Both the position numbers and the translations under genes were made by a program. DNA of 64,000 bases from Candidatus Poribacteria bacterium (GTDB lineage: Bacteria; Poribacteria; WGA-4E; PCPOR2b). Numbering within the stretch: the stretch's first letter is position 1; each line of letters starts with the position of its first letter. Positions 5,636-63,060 of the stretch are shown one piece after another. Under the pieces are notes generated by a model, which saw only the letters and a list, made by a program, of their open reading frames with translations, ran no database searches and was not told the DNA's origin. The DNA lies in the NCBI GenBank assembly GCA_965208675.1, contig OZ242351.1:3616001-3680000 (forward strand), given 5' to 3'.

Positions 5636-6727
5636 TTGTCCGCTGACCTTTCCGCAACAATTGAACAAATCGCCGACCATCTCCGGGTTGACGCCGCCAG
5701 TCTTCAGATAACCCCCGTACGTCACGGCAGGCTTGAGCGGAACAACGTCTGGCGGTTAAATTCTCCTGAGAAGAGCTATATTCTCAAACAGCATCTTATC
5801 GCTCACCCAGTAGCGAAAACGGCTTTCTCCCCATATCAGATTGAAACTGCGGTACTCCCAATTTTGTATCGGGCGGGTTGCCGCGTCCCTCAAGTTGTAT
5901 GGAAGTCTCAGGCCGATTCGATGCTGCTGTTGGAAGTGTGCGGCGAAAACACGCTCGACGATCTCGCGCAAGCGTCGTCCGCCGAAATCCTCGTGCCGAT
6001 TACCCGGAACGCGGTTCGGGAATTCTGCCGACTGGAATTGGCGTTTGGCGACCGGGCAGAAGCCATCCAACCTTACATCTATCCGTCAGATTCGCCCCTA
6101 GATGAAACACTGGACGGGATATTGGGTCAAGGCAGAAAAACCATGGAGTATCTAGCATGGTTGAGTGGCGGACCGATGCGTCCGAAGGAGCAGGCGAACC
6201 TGGACGAGGTTTGGGAGCACATGTCTAACTGTCTACACAATGCAGAAGCGAGGTTGGGAAGCTTGGATTATAACGCACGGAACGTGGTGGTCGACGGTGA
6301 CAGACCGGCTTTCATCGATTTTGCGAGCATTGGTTGGGACTGGGGAGAAAGGCGTCTGGTTCAAACGTTCAATAGTCTCGGGGCGCATCGATCGGGCGGA
6401 CGGTTTGTCAGCACCTTAAACCGGGAGGTTATCGGCGAATACGCAAGCCAGTCAGCGCAGGGGAGATTGGACGAAGCTGAGATTCGAGTGGATTATCACA
6501 ACATACTCTTCTACCTTTCTGTCGTGTATCGGCTCTTGCAGGCGATTGCTCAGCCGGAGCGTGAAGCGAGCATATTCCTGTTAGACGCGTGGGGCGATGC
6601 CAAGGCGAGACTGCGGCAGGCGATAGACCTACTTGCAGATACTCCGCTGAGTGGCAACCCGTACGCCGCACGGCTCCGGAGCATTATCAGCGAATGGCGA
6701 TCGGCTGCCGCGAAGAGCGGCGATTGA
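5636..6727 (+). CDS. APH/choline-kinase-like phosphotransferase
   Basis: YILKQH, LDYNARNVVV and FIDFAS kinase-fold motifs. Confidence 0.75.
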   Translation: MSADLSATIEQIADHLRVDAASLQITPVRHGRLERNNVWRLNSPEKSYILKQHLIAHPVAKTAFSPYQIETAVLPILYRAGCRVPQVVWKSQADSMLLLEVCGENTLDDLAQASSAEILVPITRNAVREFCRLELAFGDRAEAIQPYIYPSDSPLDETLDGILGQGRKTMEYLAWLSGGPMRPKEQANLDEVWEHMSNCLHNAEARLGSLDYNARNVVVDGDRPAFIDFASIGWDWGERRLVQTFNSLGAHRSGGRFVSTLNREVIGEYASQSAQGRLDEAEIRVDYHNILFYLSVVYRLLQAIAQPEREASIFLLDAWGDAKARLRQAIDLLADTPLSGNPYAARLRSIISEWRSAAAKSGD

Positions 6728-55154: not shown

Positions 55155-55371
55155 CGCTCAATATTAAAGCCGTATACCGGGCGCTCCTAATGGCTGAGGG
55201 CATGAGGAACGGCATTAATCTCTCATTAATTTCCGTCTGCGATGCCCCTCGCCTCCCATTCCACAAACCTCACCTACCCGTGTACGATTGAGAGTAATTC
55301 TGTATAAGCAGATGACAGTTTAATCGTCGATACGCTCTATTGTTTGTACAGAATTACAAAATACGGCAACT

Positions 55372-55754
55372 TCAGTAGCTGTTAGATTCATCTGATTTGG
55401 GGTCCGACCCAAATCGCAATACGTGATTATCAAGGTCTTCCACTTTCATTTCGTACGCCCAGGGGTAGTTTGTTGGGACCTCTCGATTCGTAGCACCGCT
55501 CGCTTGGTGTTCTTCATATAACTTCTCGACATCCTCGACACTTATCCAAGTCCAGGTTCCAGCTTGTCCCTGATCGCCGTGGCATAGCATTATATGACAG
55601 TGGCCGCGTGATACAGACCCAAAGCCTGGCGGATCTCCCCAATCCCAATCCTCTTAAAACCGAGCACTTTTACATAATAGTCGATACTGGCTGGAAAATT
55701 CTTGACATTGAAGATGGGTATGATGCACGCAAACTTGGTTTTTGTCCTTTTCAT
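55372..55754 (-). pseudogene. Frameshifted VOC/bleomycin-resistance family gene
   Basis: IPIFNVKNFPASIDYYVKVLGFK continues in another frame as DWDWGDPPGFGSVSRG..YEMKVEDLDNHVLRFG; shift near 55650. Confidence 0.75.
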
Positions 55755-55952
55755 TGCATCCGCACTCGGCATTTCAAGAATTACGTTCCGTCAGAATTGT
55801 GTCCGCAAGTGTTGACCATTATGGCACAATTGGCAGTATTGTGTCAAACAGTATTCCCCACCCACTGGCATACGTAACAAACGCTTTCGTCTTCTATCTC
55901 GCCTCGATTTCCCACTCAACAAATTTCCCGCTGAATTTTTCTTCCAGTCTGT

Positions 55953-55980
55953 GAACTTTTCATTTCCTTGCGGTGTCATT
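55953..55980 (+). promoter_or_regulatory. Candidate ECF-type promoter
   Basis: GAACTT-N16-GTCAT about 110 nt upstream of the ECF gene. Confidence 0.45.
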
Positions 55981-56091
55981 TAGAATGGAAGCTTACCGGA
56001 TGACCTATCGCCCCGCCTTTCGCCGGTAATTTTGATAAGCAATATCAAAGTGTCCTGAACCTAAGTCGGTACTTTCTTAAGCTGATGAGCA

Positions 56092-56706
56092 TTGATATTA
56101 CAATCCGATGAATTTCTCATTGATAAGATTCTTGAACGCGATGCGGAGGCGTTTGAAGTGCTTTGGGCACGATATAGCGCGTCCGTCCGCCGACACATCA
56201 TACGCACCGTACAGGACGAAAGTGCAGCCGAGGATTTGGTTCAGGAAGCATTCTTGCGTCTATGGACATCCGCTGAGCAGTGGGATGGGCGAGGCAACTT
56301 CAAGGGGTGGTTCTTCCGTATCGCCACAAACCTCGCCCTCAATCACCTGCGCGCCCTGCGTCGGCAGAAGCAACAGCCCCTCGAAATACCGCTGGACGAT
56401 TTTGATGATACGGACGACTACTCGTCCGACCCGGATTGGATGATTGACACATCGTTACGCAGTCCCGATGTGATGCTAGAACAAGCCGAGCAGTCTAATC
56501 TGCTCTGGCGGCTGGTTGAAGAACTGCCCGAAGATAAACGAGAAGTGCTTCACCTTGTATATCGGAAAGAGATGAATCTTCGTGACGTTGCCGCTGAGAT
56601 TGGCATCCCGGAAGGCACGGTGAAGTCGCGTTTACACTATTCCATAAAGCGTCTCGCTCAAGCATGGAAGGAGATTACAGGCGAATACGAGGAAGATAGT
56701 CAGTGA
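56092..56706 (+). CDS. ECF sigma-70 factor without adjacent anti-sigma
   Basis: AEDLVQEAFLRLW..FKGWFFRIATNLALNHLR; IGIPEGTVKSRLHY. Confidence 0.95.
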   Translation: MILQSDEFLIDKILERDAEAFEVLWARYSASVRRHIIRTVQDESAAEDLVQEAFLRLWTSAEQWDGRGNFKGWFFRIATNLALNHLRALRRQKQQPLEIPLDDFDDTDDYSSDPDWMIDTSLRSPDVMLEQAEQSNLLWRLVEELPEDKREVLHLVYRKEMNLRDVAAEIGIPEGTVKSRLHYSIKRLAQAWKEITGEYEEDSQ

Positions 56707-56727
56707 ACAAGCGAGGCTATTACTCGC

Positions 56728-56797
56728 CACGCATTACGCATTCCGTATTACACATCACGATTCACGCTACACACTACACACTACACACTACACGAAA
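56728..56797 (+). repeat. Heptamer tandem repeat (10 degenerate units)
   Basis: CACGCAT TACGCAT TCCGTAT TACACAT CACGATT CACGCTA CACACTA CACACTA CACACTA CACGAAA. Confidence 0.85.
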
Positions 56798-56822
56798 TTC
56801 CCAATGGGAGGAGGAGACCGCA

Positions 56823-59800
56823 ATGTCACACAACATCACCGCATTATGGCACAAAAAATCTTTTGACCAACTGATGAACAATCGGCTGCCAGACCTACTC
56901 GCCGAGCGATTGCCGATAGCTGGCTACCATTTTGAACCTACCAGCACCTACACCGGTTGTATCAAAATCTCCCTCACGTCAACTGATGGCGACGTTGAAG
57001 TCGAATACACCGATATCCCGCAACCGGACAAGGAAGGGATGTTCAAAATTGACGGAGAAAACTATGTTGTCGTTCCAACGGCTTCGACTGATAACCTGAA
57101 AAAAGCGAAAATCAGATGTATTGGAGAGCAACTATATAGTTATATCAAAATGCGCTTGAAAGGTGCCACCTTAGACCTGTCATGGGAAACAGCCCCTGTA
57201 CGATCATGGCTCCCGCTTGATAAATGGATACAGGAATTCTTTCGTGACACATTTTACTCGCAGAAACTTCAGGAGACCAACTGGCTCGACAAGTATAGGC
57301 ATCTTCGACGGTTATACGTTCTGAACCGCGAGCAGGTATTCACGCCCTCCCACTTCGGGCGGGCATGCCCTTTCGAGACGCCAGAGGGGCCAAACATAGG
57401 TCGAATCCTTACGATTGCTAGGGGCGCCGAGATTCGCGGCGGAAAACTGGTCGTCGTTGATGAAAACCCCGAAGCAAACCTCGGCTTAGCATCGGCAATG
57501 ATCCCATTTCTTGAACACAACGATCCTGCCCAGACAATGATGGGGGCTAACATGTTGTGTCAGTGGATGGCGCCTTCGTCTCCGGAGACAGCTCCACTAC
57601 GCCAAGCCAAAGAGATACCGAGGTTGGCTGCTGCTCCGGAGCCCGCACTTGTCCAAACTGGTTTAGAACCGGATGTGCCCGACTTTTGGTGCGGTCGCAA
57701 CCTATTGACCGCTTTCATTTCTTGGGGCGGCGATACCTTCGAAGACGGCATCGTGATAAGCCGGTCGTGCGCAGCGCGTCTAAAATTTCCTTATGCAGTT
57801 GAACCCGGCGATAAGATTGGCAACCGTCATGGAACGAAAGGCGTCGTTTCGCGCATCCTGCCTGACGATGAGATGCCGCACCTTGCCGACGGTACACCGG
57901 TGGAACTTGTATTCAGTTTCGGTGGCTTGCACGCGCTAATGAACCTCGGTCAATTACGAGAGGCGGTGATGGGGCGTATTGCACGACTGGAAAATAAGCC
58001 AGCTATCGTGCCGCCATTCCGCGCTCCCTGTGCGGATGAATTGCGCGAACGCCTTAAGAACGCAGGACTTCCGGAAGATGGAATGGAACGCCTTACATTT
58101 GGGAGGAACGGTAATAAGGTGGGGCGGCATAGCACAGTCGGTTGGGTGTATTGGGGACGTCTGGCTCATATTGCGTTAGATAAAATAAAAGCCTCCGACT
58201 CAACCGATATTGAAGACCATAGGTACTTCCAAACACTTGGTGAACTTGAATACGATAGACTACGCAACGCCTCAGTACTTGAAACATTGAGGGAACATTT
58301 TAACACCCGCGCCATGAATCGGACTGATGCGCATACGTTAGCGGAGCGCGTCGCAATAGGCGAAGTTGAGCAGGCGGGTCCGCCGACGCCGATGTTCGCT
58401 AACCTCACGAATCGACTCTCGGCAGCAGGAATTTGGGCCGAACTCTACGGCGGCAAGTTGATTTTTAAATTTGGGCGACCGAATGGAAATACGCTCAAGC
58501 TTGCTCAGCCCGTCCCTTATCCGTGGTGCCGCGATCGAATCCTTGATGAAGTCGGGGTCCGTGAAGGCATGCCTGAATATCAGTCGCTTGCCGATGTCAA
58601 CGCCAGGGCTGACCGTATGCTTGCGAGTAATGCACCGGAAAGTTTAACCCGCCAAACCATCGTGCAGCTCCAAACCCGCGTCGCGGATTATGTCAATGCG
58701 CTCCTAAGCCCAACCGTCATGAACTTTAAGTCACGGAGCCTCTTCAGCGGACGCGCTGTCATAGCACCGGGTGCAGAGTTACACGCTGATCAGGTCGGTA
58801 TTCCGGAGGAGATGGCGTGGGCACTCTTTGGACATCATGTTACAAATCGGCTCGGTGATGCCGAAGAAGTACGGCGGCGTAGTCAAGGTGCAACACAAAT
58901 CCTGGATGAATTGATGGCGGGTTCGTGGGTAATTGTGCTTCGTCCACCGGCGCATACACTCACTAACCTCGTTGCGTTCCATCCGGTGCGGCACCCCGAC
59001 CGTGTCATCCGCGTGCATCCATTCGTGTGCGAGTTTATGAACGCCAATTTTGACGGCGATCAAGCAGCAGTCTTTCTCCCAATCACTGAAACCGGACAAC
59101 GCGAAGCCGGTGAACGGCTTTCCATCGCCGGGCATCTGAAACACGACCCAAGTTTATCCAAATTGCTGGCACCGACGCATGACGCGATGTGGGGATTGGC
59201 ACATTTAAGCCTCACCCCGGAAGGGCGCGGCGAAATCGCAGAGATTGTCGGAACCAACATCCCCGCCCCAGACGGTCTGGTTAGACAAGATTCGCTGGCA
59301 AAGTCACTAGAAGCCATCCTCAAATGCGATGGAATAGACCGCACGATTGAAATAGCCGAGCGTCTAATGCGGCGCGGGCTCGCAATTACTAAGGAATCGG
59401 GTGCCTCCATGAGCCCATTTATCAGTAGACCCGCTGGCAGCCCATCCGTTCCGGTAGATCCCGATGATGCACCCGCTTGGAACGCTCACGCAGAGGAACT
59501 TATCGAGTGGCTTGCCGCGTGTAACGACTTCGCGGACAACAACTTGGGACCGCACATCCTTGCGGCAAAAAGCCAAGACGCACGCAGTAGACTTTATCGA
59601 ATCGCTTGCTGTGTCGGGGCAAGAGGTACGGTTTTGGACCTTCGAGGAAGAGATATCATCGTTCGCAACGGGTATAGCGACGGTTTAACACCCGGTGAAC
59701 TTTACCCGCTTTCCGTCACTTCGCGGGAGGAGATTGTGCGGCTCAATTTGGAACGGCAACGGATAGAATTGGAATTGCGCAACGACAGTGAGCCAGCAGG

Positions 59801-59942
59801 ATTCACCGTCCTGGTGCGTGCAATGCGTGCCAAACACCCAGGTGTCGTTTTCGCCCGAGCCGCTGCAACCGGTGAGGTCGATCCGCTTACTGATGTGGAC
59901 AGCCGTCTTTTCGTCGGGCTACCTGTATCAACTGAGGAGTGA
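56823..59942 (+). CDS. Miniaturised single-chain RNA polymerase beta-beta' fusion protein
   Basis: beta motifs CPFETPEGPNIG, IPFLEHND..MGANM, FEDGIVIS, GDKIGNRHGTKGVVS, followed by beta' motifs FSGRAVI, LRPPAH, NANFDGDQ; GGAGGAGG RBS before ATG 56823. Confidence 0.9.
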   Translation: MSHNITALWHKKSFDQLMNNRLPDLLAERLPIAGYHFEPTSTYTGCIKISLTSTDGDVEVEYTDIPQPDKEGMFKIDGENYVVVPTASTDNLKKAKIRCIGEQLYSYIKMRLKGATLDLSWETAPVRSWLPLDKWIQEFFRDTFYSQKLQETNWLDKYRHLRRLYVLNREQVFTPSHFGRACPFETPEGPNIGRILTIARGAEIRGGKLVVVDENPEANLGLASAMIPFLEHNDPAQTMMGANMLCQWMAPSSPETAPLRQAKEIPRLAAAPEPALVQTGLEPDVPDFWCGRNLLTAFISWGGDTFEDGIVISRSCAARLKFPYAVEPGDKIGNRHGTKGVVSRILPDDEMPHLADGTPVELVFSFGGLHALMNLGQLREAVMGRIARLENKPAIVPPFRAPCADELRERLKNAGLPEDGMERLTFGRNGNKVGRHSTVGWVYWGRLAHIALDKIKASDSTDIEDHRYFQTLGELEYDRLRNASVLETLREHFNTRAMNRTDAHTLAERVAIGEVEQAGPPTPMFANLTNRLSAAGIWAELYGGKLIFKFGRPNGNTLKLAQPVPYPWCRDRILDEVGVREGMPEYQSLADVNARADRMLASNAPESLTRQTIVQLQTRVADYVNALLSPTVMNFKSRSLFSGRAVIAPGAELHADQVGIPEEMAWALFGHHVTNRLGDAEEVRRRSQGATQILDELMAGSWVIVLRPPAHTLTNLVAFHPVRHPDRVIRVHPFVCEFMNANFDGDQAAVFLPITETGQREAGERLSIAGHLKHDPSLSKLLAPTHDAMWGLAHLSLTPEGRGEIAEIVGTNIPAPDGLVRQDSLAKSLEAILKCDGIDRTIEIAERLMRRGLAITKESGASMSPFISRPAGSPSVPVDPDDAPAWNAHAEELIEWLAACNDFADNNLGPHILAAKSQDARSRLYRIACCVGARGTVLDLRGRDIIVRNGYSDGLTPGELYPLSVTSREEIVRLNLERQRIELELRNDSEPAGFTVLVRAMRAKHPGVVFARAAATGEVDPLTDVDSRLFVGLPVSTEE

Positions 59943-59979
59943 TTCATTATCTCGAACACACACATTATCCCTGATACAG

Positions 59980-60786
59980 TCATTCATCAAAGACTTCGCT
60001 GCCGATTGAGCCGCCGGCATTCATCGCCAAGTTGCCGCCGTCCATCGGAATTATCGCACCGGTAATCCATGAGGACGCATCCGATGCGAGAAACACGGTT
60101 AGACCGCGGATGTCGTCAGGACTCCCGAATCGACCCATTGGAATGCCGCTGAGGAACCGATCCCTAATTCGCGGATCAGCGTCGATGCGTTTCTGCAAAT
60201 CTGGGTTTAATACTTGTGCGGGTAAAATCGCATTGACTCGCACACCGCGCCCCGACCATTCGGTGCTCAGCTCACGTGTCATCTGAACAACCGCACCCAT
60301 CGCCATGCTGTATGCGATGTGCCCGCGGCCCATACCCGTGATGCTTGCCAAAGAACCGAGACTTACGATGCTCCCACTTCCAGCAGTAAGCATCCGCCGC
60401 CCGGCTTCCTGACAACAACAGAATCTGCCATAGACAAGGTTGCGCCAAGTCTGTTCAACGTCTTCTAATGAGATAACCTCCGGTTTTGATCGGGTCGCTT
60501 CGCCCGCGACATTACCTAGAAAATCGATCCGACCAAATTCCTCGTCCACTCGTGCAAACATGGCGCGGATTTGATCCGGACGCGATACGTCACAATCAAC
60601 AGCGATGGCACGGCGTCCCATCGCCTTGATTTCTCTAGCAGTTTTCCCCGCACCAGCCAAGTCAATATCTGCAAGCATCAAGTCCGCCCCCGCTTCTGCC
60701 AAAGCTAACGACATCGCACGACCCATGCCACTAGCCGCTCCCGATACAACTGCAACTCGTCCGGCAAGATTGAACATCTCCGTCAC
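59980..60786 (-). CDS. SDR family oxidoreductase
   Basis: SGAASGMG, VRVNAILP, PMDGG; catalytic YxxxK appears as YSMAM. Confidence 0.9.
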   Translation of the reverse strand: MTEMFNLAGRVAVVSGAASGMGRAMSLALAEAGADLMLADIDLAGAGKTAREIKAMGRRAIAVDCDVSRPDQIRAMFARVDEEFGRIDFLGNVAGEATRSKPEVISLEDVEQTWRNLVYGRFCCCQEAGRRMLTAGSGSIVSLGSLASITGMGRGHIAYSMAMGAVVQMTRELSTEWSGRGVRVNAILPAQVLNPDLQKRIDADPRIRDRFLSGIPMGRFGSPDDIRGLTVFLASDASSWITGAIIPMDGGNLAMNAGGSIGSEVFDE

Positions 60787-61899: not shown

Positions 61900-63060
61900 T
61901 CAGATTTTGGCGCTGTGGGCACGTAGATACCGCGCCACCTCAACACGGTCTTCGTGTTCTGCCCATGCAAGCGGGGATAGGTGATGAGCACCGTCTTTAT
62001 GATTTAGGTTTGCACCTCGCTCTGCGAGAAGCATGGCTACCGCGAGATGGCCCTTGAACGCCGAAAAGTGGAGCGGCATCCACACTGCACCTAATCCGGG
62101 CGGCATCGCATCTACTCCCGCGCCTCGGTCAATCAGCAAGGCGGCAACCTCCGCACGACCATTCAAACTGGCAATACACAATGCTTCATCAAGAATCTCT
62201 TGCGGTTCGTCCGACCGAGACTTCTCTTCAAACCAGCCGATGTCGCCGAGGTTCGGTCGATCAGATGCCGCCTCCGGCTTCAGGGTTCCATCTTCAGCAA
62301 AGTAAGACTTAACCAAGTCAATGCCGCCGCCGCCCGCCGCCATCCAAAAGCTACACGGCGATATACCACGCTCAATCCAAAAATCGACAGTATCCCGATT
62401 CCCGTGCAACATGGCCGATTTTATCTGCCAAATGGCAGGAGATTCGTCCGAGCGTAACGCGCCGGTTTCGATGAGGAGTTGGACAGCTTCTAGATTGTTT
62501 GCCCAAAACACTTTTTCCATTCGAGCCCCCGCCCCAATAAGGGCGCGCATTATGGGAAGTCGAGTGTCGGTGGAGATGCCTTCGATCGAGGCGGCGTATT
62601 CTAGAAGTGTGATATAGTCCTCAGATACCTCTGGCACCTTTATCATCGCGTTGACAATGGAGGGGTCATGTGTTAACAGTTCTCTCAGTGTGTCTGAATC
62701 GCCTTTCCGGACGGCTTCAAACGCTGCACTCAAGGTTTCGTCGGTGCGCTCCGTAGGGTCGGCTCCGAGCATGATTGCACGTTCCACGAGTTTCGCCCAA
62801 CTCCTAAAACCCCTTTCACGCGCAATCACGAGTTGCGCCTCTTTTAATGACAGGTCAAACGCGCGGATTTGTTCATCTTTTGCGCCCGGGAAAAGCGGAT
62901 GGTATTCCCGAAGGCGATGAACAGCCCAACGCAAACCAGATTGATGCGCCTTCAATAGAGTTCGCGCTAGTCTGTGGTAGTAGGCGCCGCCATTCCCCCA
63001 TCCCCACAGCATATGGTCGCGCGGGTCTCGCGTGGAGTGCTCGATCAAGTTCACAGTCAT
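61900..63060 (-). CDS. Ankyrin repeat protein
   Basis: AQLVIARERGFRSW N-terminal motif; PLHFSAFKGH..LLAERGAN, SPLAWA. Confidence 0.88.
   Translation of the reverse strand: MTVNLIEHSTRDPRDHMLWGWGNGGAYYHRLARTLLKAHQSGLRWAVHRLREYHPLFPGAKDEQIRAFDLSLKEAQLVIARERGFRSWAKLVERAIMLGADPTERTDETLSAAFEAVRKGDSDTLRELLTHDPSIVNAMIKVPEVSEDYITLLEYAASIEGISTDTRLPIMRALIGAGARMEKVFWANNLEAVQLLIETGALRSDESPAIWQIKSAMLHGNRDTVDFWIERGISPCSFWMAAGGGGIDLVKSYFAEDGTLKPEAASDRPNLGDIGWFEEKSRSDEPQEILDEALCIASLNGRAEVAALLIDRGAGVDAMPPGLGAVWMPLHFSAFKGHLAVAMLLAERGANLNHKDGAHHLSPLAWAEHEDRVEVARYLRAHSAKI

Follow-up and report, generated by a model that had tools for sequence, protein, structure and literature searches.

An ECF σ gene paired with a single-chain mini-RNA polymerase gene behind a promoter of their own in Poribacteria

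What does a homologue of the RNA polymerase (RNAP) core do in the place that an anti-σ gene usually takes beside an ECF σ gene? The question is raised by a locus in a 64,000-nt stretch of Candidatus Poribacteria DNA (contig OZ242351.1; this whole stretch is the window referred to below), in which an ECF σ gene and the gene of a single-chain mini-RNAP make up a two-gene unit that has a promoter to itself. The original prediction, made from these letters, envisaged either a private holoenzyme or an RNAP mimic that sequesters its σ. Full-text literature searches found no published description of such an ECF σ/mini-core unit. The pair is best explained as a self-contained, autoregulated two-gene module in which the mini-core fills the usual anti-σ slot.

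The σ gene and the start of the fusion gene

56092-56706, + strand: ECF σ, RpoE/AlgU-like, 204 aa, TTG start (Pfam and NCBIfam)
56707-56822, + strand: intergenic spacer with a CACTACA-type simple repeat at ~56760-56795 (sequence read)
56823-59942, + strand: single-chain β-β' fusion, the mini-core, 1039 aa (Pfam, NCBIfam, PDB, hhalign, AlphaFold2)

The σ ORF matches Sigma70_r2 (E 2.5e-18), Sigma70_r4 (1.2e-11) and Sigma70_ECF of Pfam as well as TIGR02937 (E 4.7e-34), and consists of domains σ2 and σ4 only. Among proteins of solved structure it is nearest to AlgU, SigW and E. coli σE (E 6e-35 to 2e-29). In region 2.2, which is canonical, the residues D48, Q51 and W58 do not vary, and dN/dS of 0.13-0.23 indicates purifying selection. 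Alignment of 34 orthologues (A3) reveals conservation of an acidic W-E-E C-terminal tail and of the σ2/σ4 linker (P96, L97, W116, D119), whereas ECF linkers are generally without conservation in the account of them given in PMC6648896.

The mechanically called fusion ORF (1079 aa) runs from GTG 56703 and overlaps the σ stop codon. Translation almost certainly begins at ATG 56823 instead, because a strong Shine-Dalgarno sequence, GGGAGGAGGAG, precedes it and the 1039-aa homologues begin there; with this start the σ-fusion gap comes to 116 nt in this genome. The two genes of most other phyla instead share an ATGA overlap (for example, σ ending at 6004 and fusion starting at 6001).

Anatomy of the mini-core

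57786-57794, + strand: flap-loss junction, residues ~322-324 (hhalign gap)
59691-59786, + strand: bridge helix, residues 957-988 (hhalign to host β' 810; model helix H957-988)

The fusion matches Pfam domains in β-then-β' order (Rpb2_3; Rpb2_6, 2.4e-37; Rpb1_2, 1.5e-15) and PDB chains of both subunits (β, 4.8e-42; β', 4.8e-18). Profile alignment places residues ~89-522 on host β 412-1284, with the flap removed, and residues ~542-986 on host β' 257-810, the canonical rpoB and rpoC genes (1305 and 1415 aa) being located elsewhere in the same genome. The AlphaFold2 model (pLDDT 91.9, pTM 0.90) finds its best Foldseek matches in bacterial and plastid RNAP β and β' chains. Kept are the two catalytic barrels together with the clamp coiled coil and the bridge helix; the protein has lost its β flap, most lobes and what would follow the bridge helix, and about 60% of the β plus β' mass is gone. 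Deletion of the flap, already noticed in the original prediction, is evident from the ~245 host β residues (~805-1050) missing between family columns 322 and 323 in the hhalign comparison; HMMER alignment with a PDB β chain likewise jumps, going from chain residue 794 to 932 while the query, the 1079-aa ORF, advances only from 355 to 365. Only ~50 residues follow the bridge helix, so that, judged by length, a trigger-loop-sized insert is probably absent. Conservation is 0.77 in the β barrel and 0.73 in the β' barrel, as against 0.67 for the whole protein; the bridge helix and the switch-2 region likewise exceed this average.

The mini-core is thus homologous to both subunits of the canonical core, in the same order as in the full-length β-β' fusions PRK14844 and PRK09603 (E 1e-48 against TIGR02013, 2.8e-45 against PRK14844), and shares with them the two double-psi barrels, fork, switch-2, clamp coiled coil and bridge helix. 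Unlike them it lacks the flap, most lobes and the rudder loop, and has only a short C-terminal segment past the bridge helix. At 1039 aa it compares with ~2700 for host β plus β' and ~2840-2890 for the full-length fusion models, one of which it matches with 154 bits where the cut-off is 4632. It also differs from the canonical core in being an accessory gene (32/176 genomes) with variable catalytic residues.

The clamp coiled coil

58572-58703, + strand: clamp coiled coil, residues 584-627, the canonical σ2-docking element (hhalign, AlphaFold)

The 35-residue peptide encoded at 58578-58682 (fusion residues 586-620) had been taken for the clamp coiled coil, rightly so: it maps on the host β' clamp coiled coil (hhalign probability 99.8%, E 9.9e-30), and AlphaFold renders the element as a helical hairpin (H584-601 and H606-627). 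Y586, N593, R595, R598, A604-P605-E606, R610, L616-Q617 and V620 are identical to the aligned host β', and Y586, L589, N593, R595, R598, P605, L608 and L616 are at least 90% conserved in the family. The polar residues N, R, R, R and Q of the host coiled coil are therefore also found in the fusion; σE2 contacts the clamp helices via a conserved polar surface, as this interface is described in PMC6648896. Conservation of the coiled coil, at 0.60-0.64, is not above the protein average of 0.67. Three E. coli β' positions that we take to be critical for σ70 binding, presuming their numbering, seemingly are not conserved in the family. Pairwise identities of σ and fusion are correlated (r = 0.87 over 496 non-independent pairs), which speaks for co-evolution of the two. 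A single protein joining σ and fusion (a 'Rosetta' protein) was not found, a null result of little weight.

Promoter and leader

55952-55979, + strand: conserved ECF-type promoter (6-mer enrichment, family boxes, genome PWM scan)
55980-55991, + strand: conserved box, consensus ACAGTGGAAG, here TTAGAATGGAAG (0.7-1.4 bits per position, 31 sites)
55992-56091, + strand: extra leader of ~100 nt, present only in the window's genus and its nearest relatives

The GAACTT-N16-GTCAT element first noted at 55953-55979 (GAACTT 55953-55958, 16 nt, GTCAT 55975-55979) turns out to be part of a promoter shared by the family. In the window this consists of TGAACTT at 55952-55958 (-35 box), a variable spacer of 11 nt and GCGGTGTCAT at 55970-55979 (-10 box); the family consensus is TGAACYT-N13-GCGGTGTCAT, at fixed spacing. 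An unbiased count of 6-mers in the DNA upstream of 38 orthologous σ genes ranked GGTGTC (24/38, expected 2.5) and TGAACT (20/38, expected 2.0) at the top. Both boxes occur together at 33 of the 38 loci, 31 of which share the window's spacing, an enrichment far beyond chance.

The conserved box that follows probably marks the transcription start and an ancestral ribosome-binding site, the σ start codon lying no more than ~10 nt past it in most loci. The distance from promoter to σ start is 139 nt in the window, 97 and 77 nt at two further loci (L006 and L016) and ~45 nt in other Poribacteria.

A PWM scan of the whole 4.89-Mb genome finds the full promoter once (34.8 bits, next best 16.9), the runner-up being antisense to ORFs. 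On this ground the σ appears to have no regulon beyond its own module. Many ECF σs have tiny regulons that amount to their own operon. This favors a reading of the σ as a switch and nothing else, acting solely with host RNAP to turn on the operon, with the mini-core serving, alone or with host factors, as a polymerase or nucleic-acid-binding protein that makes no specific σ contact; uniqueness of the promoter in the genome is in accord with it. So is the standard ECF -35/-10 geometry, which is partly set by the β flap according to the treatment of promoter spacing in PMC2613000, and only the host enzyme has a flap. On the other hand, this reading leaves unexplained why the σ2-docking coiled coil, with its canonical polar residues, should have survived amid so much reduction and why catalytically eroded copies are still paired with σ, and it leaves the σ without post-translational control. 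We consider it rather unlikely as an account of the whole.

Spacing that is rigid and flap-dependent (PMC2613000, as above), together with a flapless fusion, implies that the first round of transcription, if no other, is probably the work of host core with σ.

Linkage, distribution and descent

The analysis covers 40 genome loci of the family; with three that lack upstream DNA left out and one metagenome locus included, 38 loci from about nine phyla are testable. The predicted conservation of the gene pair is decisively borne out as far as linkage is concerned: an orthologous ECF σ gene lies directly upstream, on the same strand, at 37/37 genome loci and at the 1/1 metagenome locus, and unlinked homologues were not encountered among these 38. 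Pfam domains likewise uphold the order first proposed, ECF gene and then fusion without an anti-σ: there is no anti-σ domain at the locus and no conserved third gene beside the pair across loci, the neighbor genes being variable. Among 176 genomes of the phylum, 32 have the fusion, 32 the σ and 31 both; the exceptions are a σ remnant with two stops (G061) and a genome, 79% complete, with a fusion fragment only (G015).

Distribution within the phylum is patchy, and some congeneric closed genomes lack the pair. This, together with neighbor genes that differ from locus to locus and with the circumstance that reduced two-barrel polymerases are usually phage-borne (in the examples treated in PMC2919709 and PMC10770324), might suggest the cargo of a mobile element or phage, that is, a private polymerase of viral type together with the factor that gives it specificity. 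However, 2.9 million viral contigs contain no close relative of the fusion (the best match has 25-33% identity); no integrase, capsid or other conserved neighbor accompanies the pair across loci; and the window's neighbors are ordinary genes (an SDR, an ankyrin-repeat protein and a haem-oxygenase-like protein). Moreover, phyla largely cluster in a quick tree, in which Poribacteria form one clade (support 99) and phylum labels change 6 times against a minimum of 5, and this fits mostly vertical descent with losses. A mobile-element origin of this kind is very improbable.

Catalytic residues and selection

57807-57842, + strand: β-barrel motif GDKIGNRHGTKG, residues 329-340, with universal lysines K331 and K339 (sequence comparison)
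59040-59060, + strand: metal-binding motif NANFDGD, residues 740-746 (family consensus NADFDGD)

In the window's fusion the universal Asp triad begins with an asparagine, N742, in place of the usual Asp; the other two members, D744 and D746, are kept, and these two are invariant in 101/101 and 32/32 sequences (alignments A2 and A4). All eight universal residues are kept in 75/101 and 18/32 sequences and in 45/65 family representatives, with changes in 26/101, 14/32 and 20/65; all three residues of the Asp triad are lost in two representatives and one residue in a third. Universal catalytic residues, then, are not inviolate in the mini-core family, yet purifying selection persists, with dN/dS of 0.15-0.21 for the fusion and still 0.15-0.22 in clades with catalytic changes. 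This is new, and it implies that polymerase activity is not the whole of the selected function. The mini-core's polymerase activity may be weak or absent in the window, and a role that does not require catalysis is favored in at least some lineages, because the residues are repeatedly eroded while selection persists.

The D-to-N change in the window's triad and two broken copies elsewhere (L036, in three reading frames, and L035, with an internal deletion) are also what a functionless, decaying rpoB-rpoC duplicate would present. The window's ORF is intact over 1039 aa and under the selection just described, length and sequence of the fusion are conserved over about nine phyla, the structural model is confident, and canonical rpoB and rpoC genes exist outside this locus. 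Selection and conservation effectively refute such decay, to which we assign a negligible probability.

Repeated loss of catalytic residues under purifying selection, with N742 as the window's own instance, bears more directly on the second of the two original proposals, an RNAP mimic acting as an anti-σ by holding σ on a copy of its docking site and away from host core. Catalysis would then be a relic, and cue-driven release of σ would fire the positive-feedback promoter. The mini-core occupies the exact anti-σ position, often with an ATGA overlap; neither an anti-σ domain nor a third gene is found with it; the clamp coiled coil survives; and σ and mini-core are gained and lost jointly. However, ~50-100 residues would do for a pure decoy, which has 1039 here; above-average conservation takes in the switch-2 region as well as the two barrels and the bridge helix; in the larger samples 69-74% of members have the full set of eight universal residues, with D744 and D746 present in 133/133 (A2 and A4); and a σ without a regulon outside its module leaves nothing to regulate. 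As a complete explanation, sequestration alone is doubtful.

A tentative model

The anatomy and linkage of the two genes, their promoter and the selection that persists despite catalytic erosion lead us to infer the following steps. ECF σ on host RNAP, which still has the flap that spaces σ4 from σ2, would read the single promoter, and σ and mini-core would be co-transcribed. The mini-core, having shed nearly all accessory domains, would then dock σ domain 2 at its clamp coiled coil, conceivably in 1:1 amounts, given that translation of the two genes is usually coupled. Where the active site is intact, σ and mini-core would be a working two-protein polymerase that, being flapless, starts transcription mainly via σ2 and the -10 element. 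Where catalytic residues are eroded, the mini-core would, by the same docking, chiefly be a sink or buffer for its own σ. That the docked pair is a working polymerase in most lineages is a proposal to which we give somewhat less than even credence.

Two features of the promoter sit uneasily with a holoenzyme. There is no visible output, the genome's only full promoter being the module's own. In a flapless, σ-docking enzyme σ4 would also be without a known anchor, yet the -35 box and its spacing are strictly conserved, a pattern predicted by use of host core alone.

Relation to known systems

In its regulation the module resembles the RpoE-RseA and AlgU-MucA operons, with an autoregulated GAAC...GTC promoter and a second gene that is co-transcribed and often overlapping. 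Unlike in those operons, the second gene specifies an RNAP core homologue in place of an anti-σ and the promoter seemingly serves its own operon only.

YonO of the Bacillus subtilis SPβ prophage is a single-peptide RNAP homologous to the multisubunit enzymes, and demonstrates that processive, DNA-dependent RNA synthesis is within reach of so reduced an enzyme (both as presented in PMC5467207). YonO and the mini-core are each one chain of ~100 kDa with both barrels and no detectable trigger loop, in so far as YonO is characterized there. YonO is prophage-borne, has few catalytic residues in common with multisubunit enzymes and is stated to have an unknown initiation factor (PMC5467207 and, for the last point, also PMC10770324, in their sections on this enzyme). 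The mini-core, unlike YonO, is chromosomal, aligns over ~850 residues with β and β', keeps the coiled coil and is always ECF-paired. P23-45 gp64 and gp96, crAss-like φ14:2 gp66 and QDE-1 have, like the mini-core, a minimal two-barrel body and a clamp of variable size; they are viral or eukaryotic and highly diverged, and the description of them in PMC10770324 names no σ partner, whereas the mini-core is cellular and σ-linked. Description of these polymerases without a σ (PMC10770324 and PMC5467207, in the portions concerned), along with the statement on YonO, is more easily accommodated if the σ is only a switch.

The AR9 nvRNAP is, like the proposed two-protein polymerase, a reduced β/β' homologue with a dedicated specificity factor. 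As portrayed in the relevant parts of PMC5449584 and PMC9209446, nvRNAPs of this type are phage-encoded, have several subunits and use a specificity subunit that recognizes uracil-containing promoters on their template strand; here, by contrast, a one-chain polymerase-like protein is paired with a standard ECF σ.

The gene pair and its distribution

The original prediction described an ECF σ gene followed by a β-β′ fusion gene and preceded by a promoter, and this description holds: the domains, the clamp coiled coil and the promoter are all found.

55952-55979, + strand: conserved ECF-type promoter TGAACTT-N13-GCGGTGTCAT (from 6-mer enrichment and the family consensus)
56092-56706, + strand: ECF σ gene, TTG start, 204 aa (Pfam and NCBIfam matches)
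56823-59942, + strand: β-β′ fusion gene, start at ATG 56823 (mechanical ORF 56703-59942)
58578-58682, + strand: clamp coiled coil peptide, residues 586-620 of the fusion (from hhalign to host β′ and the hairpin of the model)

The σ consists of domains σ2 and σ4 only (Sigma70_r2, Sigma70_r4, Sigma70_r4_2 and Sigma70_ECF all exceed the Pfam cut-offs, and TIGR02937 of NCBIfam, with a cut-off of 42.9 bits, reaches 117), and its domain content as well as possession of its own promoter place it among the ECF (group 4) σ70 factors; among solved structures the σ is closest to AlgU, SigW and E. coli σE. A cognate anti-σ gene beside an ECF σ gene is common, if not universal. None lies next to this σ gene, the downstream gene having RNA polymerase domains only (Pfam), and no anti-σ domain in the module is matched by Pfam or NCBIfam at E <= 0.1. 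As judged from sequence, the missing domain lowers the case for membership of the fusion protein (the mini-core) in an anti-σ family, not the case for its working in an anti-σ-like manner.

Conservation of the gene pair across genomes, named beforehand as the test of the pairing, strongly supports it. A linkage scan with one genome per species yields 40 fusion-family loci (L006-L045) in Poribacteria, Chloroflexota, Armatimonadota, Planctomycetota (Phycisphaerae, Planctomycetales and Brocadiaceae), Latescibacterota, Kiritimatiellota and Hydrogenedentota. In 37 of them the fusion is immediately preceded, in the same orientation, by a close orthologue of the window's σ (E 4e-29 to 2e-118); in the other three of the 40 the contig has no DNA upstream of the fusion. 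One metagenome locus is arranged in the same way. The σ stop and the fusion start overlap in many loci. (The two genes overlap in most other phyla and are separated by a spacer in Poribacteria, which in the window holds a CACTACA-type simple repeat of about four units at 56760-56795. In one poribacterial locus, L022:3233-5638, the same place as genome G030, an 801-aa gene of the S9 prolyl-oligopeptidase family stands between σ and fusion, on the same strand.) When the flanking ORFs of the 40 loci are clustered all against all, no third gene proves to be conserved.

The 176 genomes of the window's phylum include 32 with the fusion and 32 with the σ orthologue, the two lying side by side in 31; the exceptions are an incomplete genome with only a fragment of the fusion and a genome with only a σ remnant, interrupted by two stop codons (G061:C1:5436385-5436942; the genome has no fusion). 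Both genes can be absent from closed genomes of the window's genus, so the module is accessory. Pairwise identities of σ and fusion are correlated (r = 0.87, over 496 pairs that are not independent), and a quick maximum-likelihood tree groups the sequences mostly by phylum, Poribacteria being one clade (support 99). No close relative of the fusion is present in 2.9 million viral contigs, and phage origin of the module is rejected on that ground. Taken together, linkage, co-occurrence, clustering in the tree and the null result with viral contigs suggest that the module is old and cellular and has been lost many times, rather than being of phage descent. A Rosetta-stone search for the σ fused to a longer protein returns none at E <= 1e-20 among 1959 candidates, which is weak evidence.

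Decaying copies of the fusion gene are seen at L036:5965-9006 (Armatimonadetes; three reading frames) and at L035:3252-5837 (residues ~45-226 absent). Metagenome clusters contain other uncharacterised single-chain β-β′-type proteins of 1221-1787 aa, and many contigs among viral loci L115-L194 carry contiguous β/β′-like stretches with ~25% identity to the fusion family.

Architecture of the mini-core

Translation of the fusion almost certainly starts at ATG 56823, with ribosome-binding site GGGAGGAGGAG before it, because the 1039-aa homologues begin there. Pfam domains Rpb2_3, Rpb2_6 and Rpb1_2 follow one another in the order β, then β′, and PDB matches are to β chains (E 4.8e-42) and β′ chains (E 4.8e-18). 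The fusion is an extra and reduced copy, since normal rpoB and rpoC (1305 and 1415 aa) exist elsewhere in the genome.

The anatomy of the mini-core has been derived from a profile of 101 fusion-family members aligned (hhalign) to the host's own β and β′. Residues ~89-522 correspond to host β 412-1284 (probability 100%, E 1.4e-45), and the flap, ~245 residues of host β, is missing between family columns 322 and 323. Residues ~542-986 correspond to host β′ 257-810 (probability 99.8%, E 9.9e-30), a stretch that spans the clamp coiled coil, a shortened rudder region, switch 2, the metal-binding barrel and the bridge helix. Homology thus extends over both double-psi barrels, of β and of β′, that define the two-barrel RNA polymerase core. 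An AlphaFold2 model (pLDDT 91.9, pTM 0.90) folds residues 584-627 into a helical hairpin and 957-988 into a long helix, and its best Foldseek matches are β and β′ chains of bacterial and plastid RNAP. The bridge helix is accounted for by this modelled helix and by alignment to host β′ as far as residue 810. There the alignment ends and only ~50 residues follow; judging by length, a normal-sized trigger loop is therefore probably absent. Within the coiled coil, Y586, N593, R595, R598, A604-P605-E606, R610, L616-Q617 and V620 are the same as in aligned host β′. Residues ~146-166, which align to the rifampicin-cluster-I region of β, differ at several positions from the host sequence (the host β gene is at L113:6002-9919, - strand).

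Catalytic residues and selection

Of the eight residues reported as invariant in all two-barrel polymerases (PMC2919709), three form the Asp triad, three (an Asp and two Lys) belong to the second-largest subunit and two (an Arg and a Pro) to the largest. The eight were mapped by us from yeast numbering onto the fusion family by way of the alignments to host β and β′. In the window's fusion, N742 replaces the first Asp of the triad and the remaining seven are present, so that the full invariant set of a two-barrel polymerase core is not found in this protein. NADFDGD, the canonical motif, is the consensus of the family; NANFDGD occurs in the window, its genus and four other lineages (7 of 101 close homologues and 5 of 32 genome sequences). 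All eight residues are kept in 75 of the 101 close homologues, 18 of the 32 genome loci and 45 of 65 full-length cluster representatives. (The 32 are the window and 31 of the 40 loci, with L011, L018, L035, L036 and L040-L045 left out as partial, deleted or frameshifted; the 65 are those of 940-1110 aa among 150 returned, the other 85 being fragments or canonical long polymerases.) Substitutions in the family include E, N, S and Y at the β Asp; A, S, T, M, R, W and L at the two Lys; and H, S, C, G and K at the Arg. The whole Asp triad is lost in two representatives. A metagenome scan with one triad-less representative, P0154, returns only a partial locus (L195, 46% identity), in which σ and promoter are present and the triad is not reached.

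Selection on the fusion is not relaxed despite these catalytic changes: dN/dS is 0.18-0.21 in the window's genus, and 0.15-0.22 in a second poribacterial clade. Two Chloroflexota in which Tyr replaces the β Asp give 0.18, against 0.16 for a canonical pair. The σ is kept by members with changed catalytic residues, namely the window's genus, L012 and the second poribacterial clade (L020, L022, L037 and L039); it is also present at L017 and L023, where the promoter regular expression finds no site. (Each of the four members of the second clade has a different catalytic substitution; the clade's branch in the quick tree is long (0.66), and its fusions have 40-60 extra residues.) By their sequences, most family members look like competent polymerases. 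Because catalytic residues change while selection persists, the family is also retained for a role that persists when catalysis is lost. Such erosion favours the notion that the mini-core is purely an anti-σ, a mimic of polymerase; on the other hand, its size and its conserved barrels disfavor that notion, which is judged rather unlikely.

The promoter and its uniqueness

Counting of 6-mers upstream of 38 σ genes, with no motif assumed and expectation taken from shuffles, puts GGTGTC (24 of 38; expected 2.5) and TGAACT (20 of 38; expected 2.0) at the top. Both boxes occur in 33 of the 38 loci, 31 of these with the window's spacing. The consensus promoter, TGAACTT-N13-GCGGTGTCAT, has a further conserved box, ACAGTGGAAG, downstream of it. 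The element GAACTT-N16-GTCAT of the original prediction is the window's copy of this family promoter. Its combination of an AAC-containing -35 and a GTC-type -10 at 16-17 nt spacing we take to be of the ECF consensus type.

In a scan of the 4.89-Mb genome with a weight matrix built from the 31 exact-spacing sites, the window's site scores 34.8 bits (a score inflated by its being one of the training sites) and all others score at most 16.9; the runner-up, C1:4117425(-), is antisense to ORFs. A loose pattern, TGAAC-N15-GGTGTC, has 2-5 matches in each of five other carrier genomes against 1-2 for a control pattern (a repeat family in G005 set apart), and these sequence matches are at chance level. 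Thus, on the evidence of these scans, the σ seems to have a single promoter, its own. The G005 family (Armatimonadetes; L085, L090, L099, L103, L106-L111) comprises ten identical copies of a 26-mer fitting the loose pattern, presumably a repeat or insertion element.

Promoter geometry and single target would suit a σ that is a mere switch, turning on the fusion gene through the host polymerase. Survival of the coiled coil in the mini-core and the lack of any control of the σ disfavor this explanation, and we consider it, like the pure anti-σ, rather unlikely.

The TTG start of the σ gene has no obvious Shine-Dalgarno sequence in front of it. In the window's genus an extra leader of ~100 nt (55992-56091) intervenes between the conserved promoter/ribosome-binding box and the σ start; the leader region includes a short upstream ORF at 55985-56029 (ATG 55985 or 56000; stop 56027-56029), and the leader has 7-nt inverted arms, TTACCGG / CCGGTAA. 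An Rfam scan of 55300-60300 gives no match, and a scan for σ70 promoters and terminators stays below shuffled expectation.

How σ and mini-core may act together

In ECF factors, σ2 docks on the β′ clamp helices by way of a conserved polar surface, the flap tip helix carries σ4, and the linker threads the cleft (PMC6648896); the flap contact helps to set -35/-10 spacing (PMC2613000). The mini-core has kept the σ2 docking site, the clamp coiled coil, and lost the σ4 site, the flap. The original prediction offered either a private two-gene holoenzyme or a polymerase mimic sequestering its σ. The reading favored here joins the two, and is held with somewhat less than even confidence as a whole: host core with σ would fire the module promoter, which fits the rigid ECF spacing of that promoter; the mini-core made along with the σ would then capture it on the clamp coiled coil. 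Where the active site is intact, σ and mini-core would constitute a two-protein polymerase relying mainly on σ2 and the -10 element; where it is eroded, as perhaps in the window, the mini-core would be mostly a sink for σ. Complex prediction with full-length σ (alignment of σ orthologues) and fusion residues 250-1039 (alignment of 32 fusions), which omits residues 1-249 and with them a conserved N-terminal helix, counts neither for nor against binding (score 0.17, mark 0.32).

A stronger version of this reading, possible but doubtful, is that σ and mini-core (~23 + 115 kDa) make up a complete, self-sufficient and promoter-specific two-polypeptide transcription machine. It would have evolved from the bacterial enzyme and been maintained in at least nine phyla as a channel for orthogonal transcription, and lineages without catalysis would have turned it into a polymerase-mimic anti-σ. 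No reading explains the module's output, because the only detectable target of the σ is the module itself.

If σ and mini-core do work together, they would define the minimal polymerase parts for σ-dependent initiation (both barrels, bridge helix and clamp coiled coil; flap, lobes, trigger loop, α and ω would all be dispensable) and provide a natural two-gene, one-promoter orthogonal expression system; a true two-polypeptide machine would be the smallest σ-programmed RNA polymerase known. If the mini-core is instead a mimic that holds the σ, it would represent a new class of anti-σ built from polymerase itself. Under either reading, the module is a natural experiment in which an essential enzyme has been pared down and then partly made into a pseudoenzyme.

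Relation to known polymerases

The module joins two known kinds, an ECF module and a reduced two-barrel polymerase. Full-length β-β′ fusions (PRK14844 / PRK09603) are whole enzymes of ~2840-2890 aa. With its 1039 aa and scores far under the equivalog cut-offs of these NCBIfam models (153.9 bits against 4632 and 142.1 against 5372), the mini-core is ruled out as one of them. Single-chain two-barrel enzymes, as treated in the pertinent parts of PMC5467207, PMC10770324 and PMC2919709, are viral or eukaryotic and highly diverged (YonO, P23-45 gp64 and gp96, crAss phi14:2 gp66, and QDE-1), and those parts describe no σ-family partner for any of them. YonO-like polymerases are borne by prophages or phages, and their likeness to multisubunit enzymes is limited to a few catalytic residues; the mini-core has no close relative in the viral contigs and extensive β/β′ homology, and is set apart from YonO by the description of the latter.

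Databases name members of the fusion family 'hypothetical protein' or 'DNA-directed RNA polymerase family protein'. Full-text literature searches find no published description of the family or of an ECF σ paired with a polymerase homologue; an earlier mention (e.g. in Iyer & Aravind 2012, J Struct Biol) is possible. The paper that reclassified ECF σ factors (PMC7826278) mentions no polymerase partner in its main text; its supplements may list the σ group and the genomic context of that group. The module is an uncharacterised conserved one of Poribacteria, Chloroflexota, Planctomycetota, Armatimonadota, Latescibacterota, Kiritimatiellota and Hydrogenedentota.

Other features of the window

Two short ORFs (72 and 60 aa) on the - strand at 55372-55772 abut at 55590 and may be one frameshifted gene. 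Ankyrin-repeat proteins are typical of sponge-symbiont genomes, and one of 386 aa is encoded at 61900-63060 (- strand).
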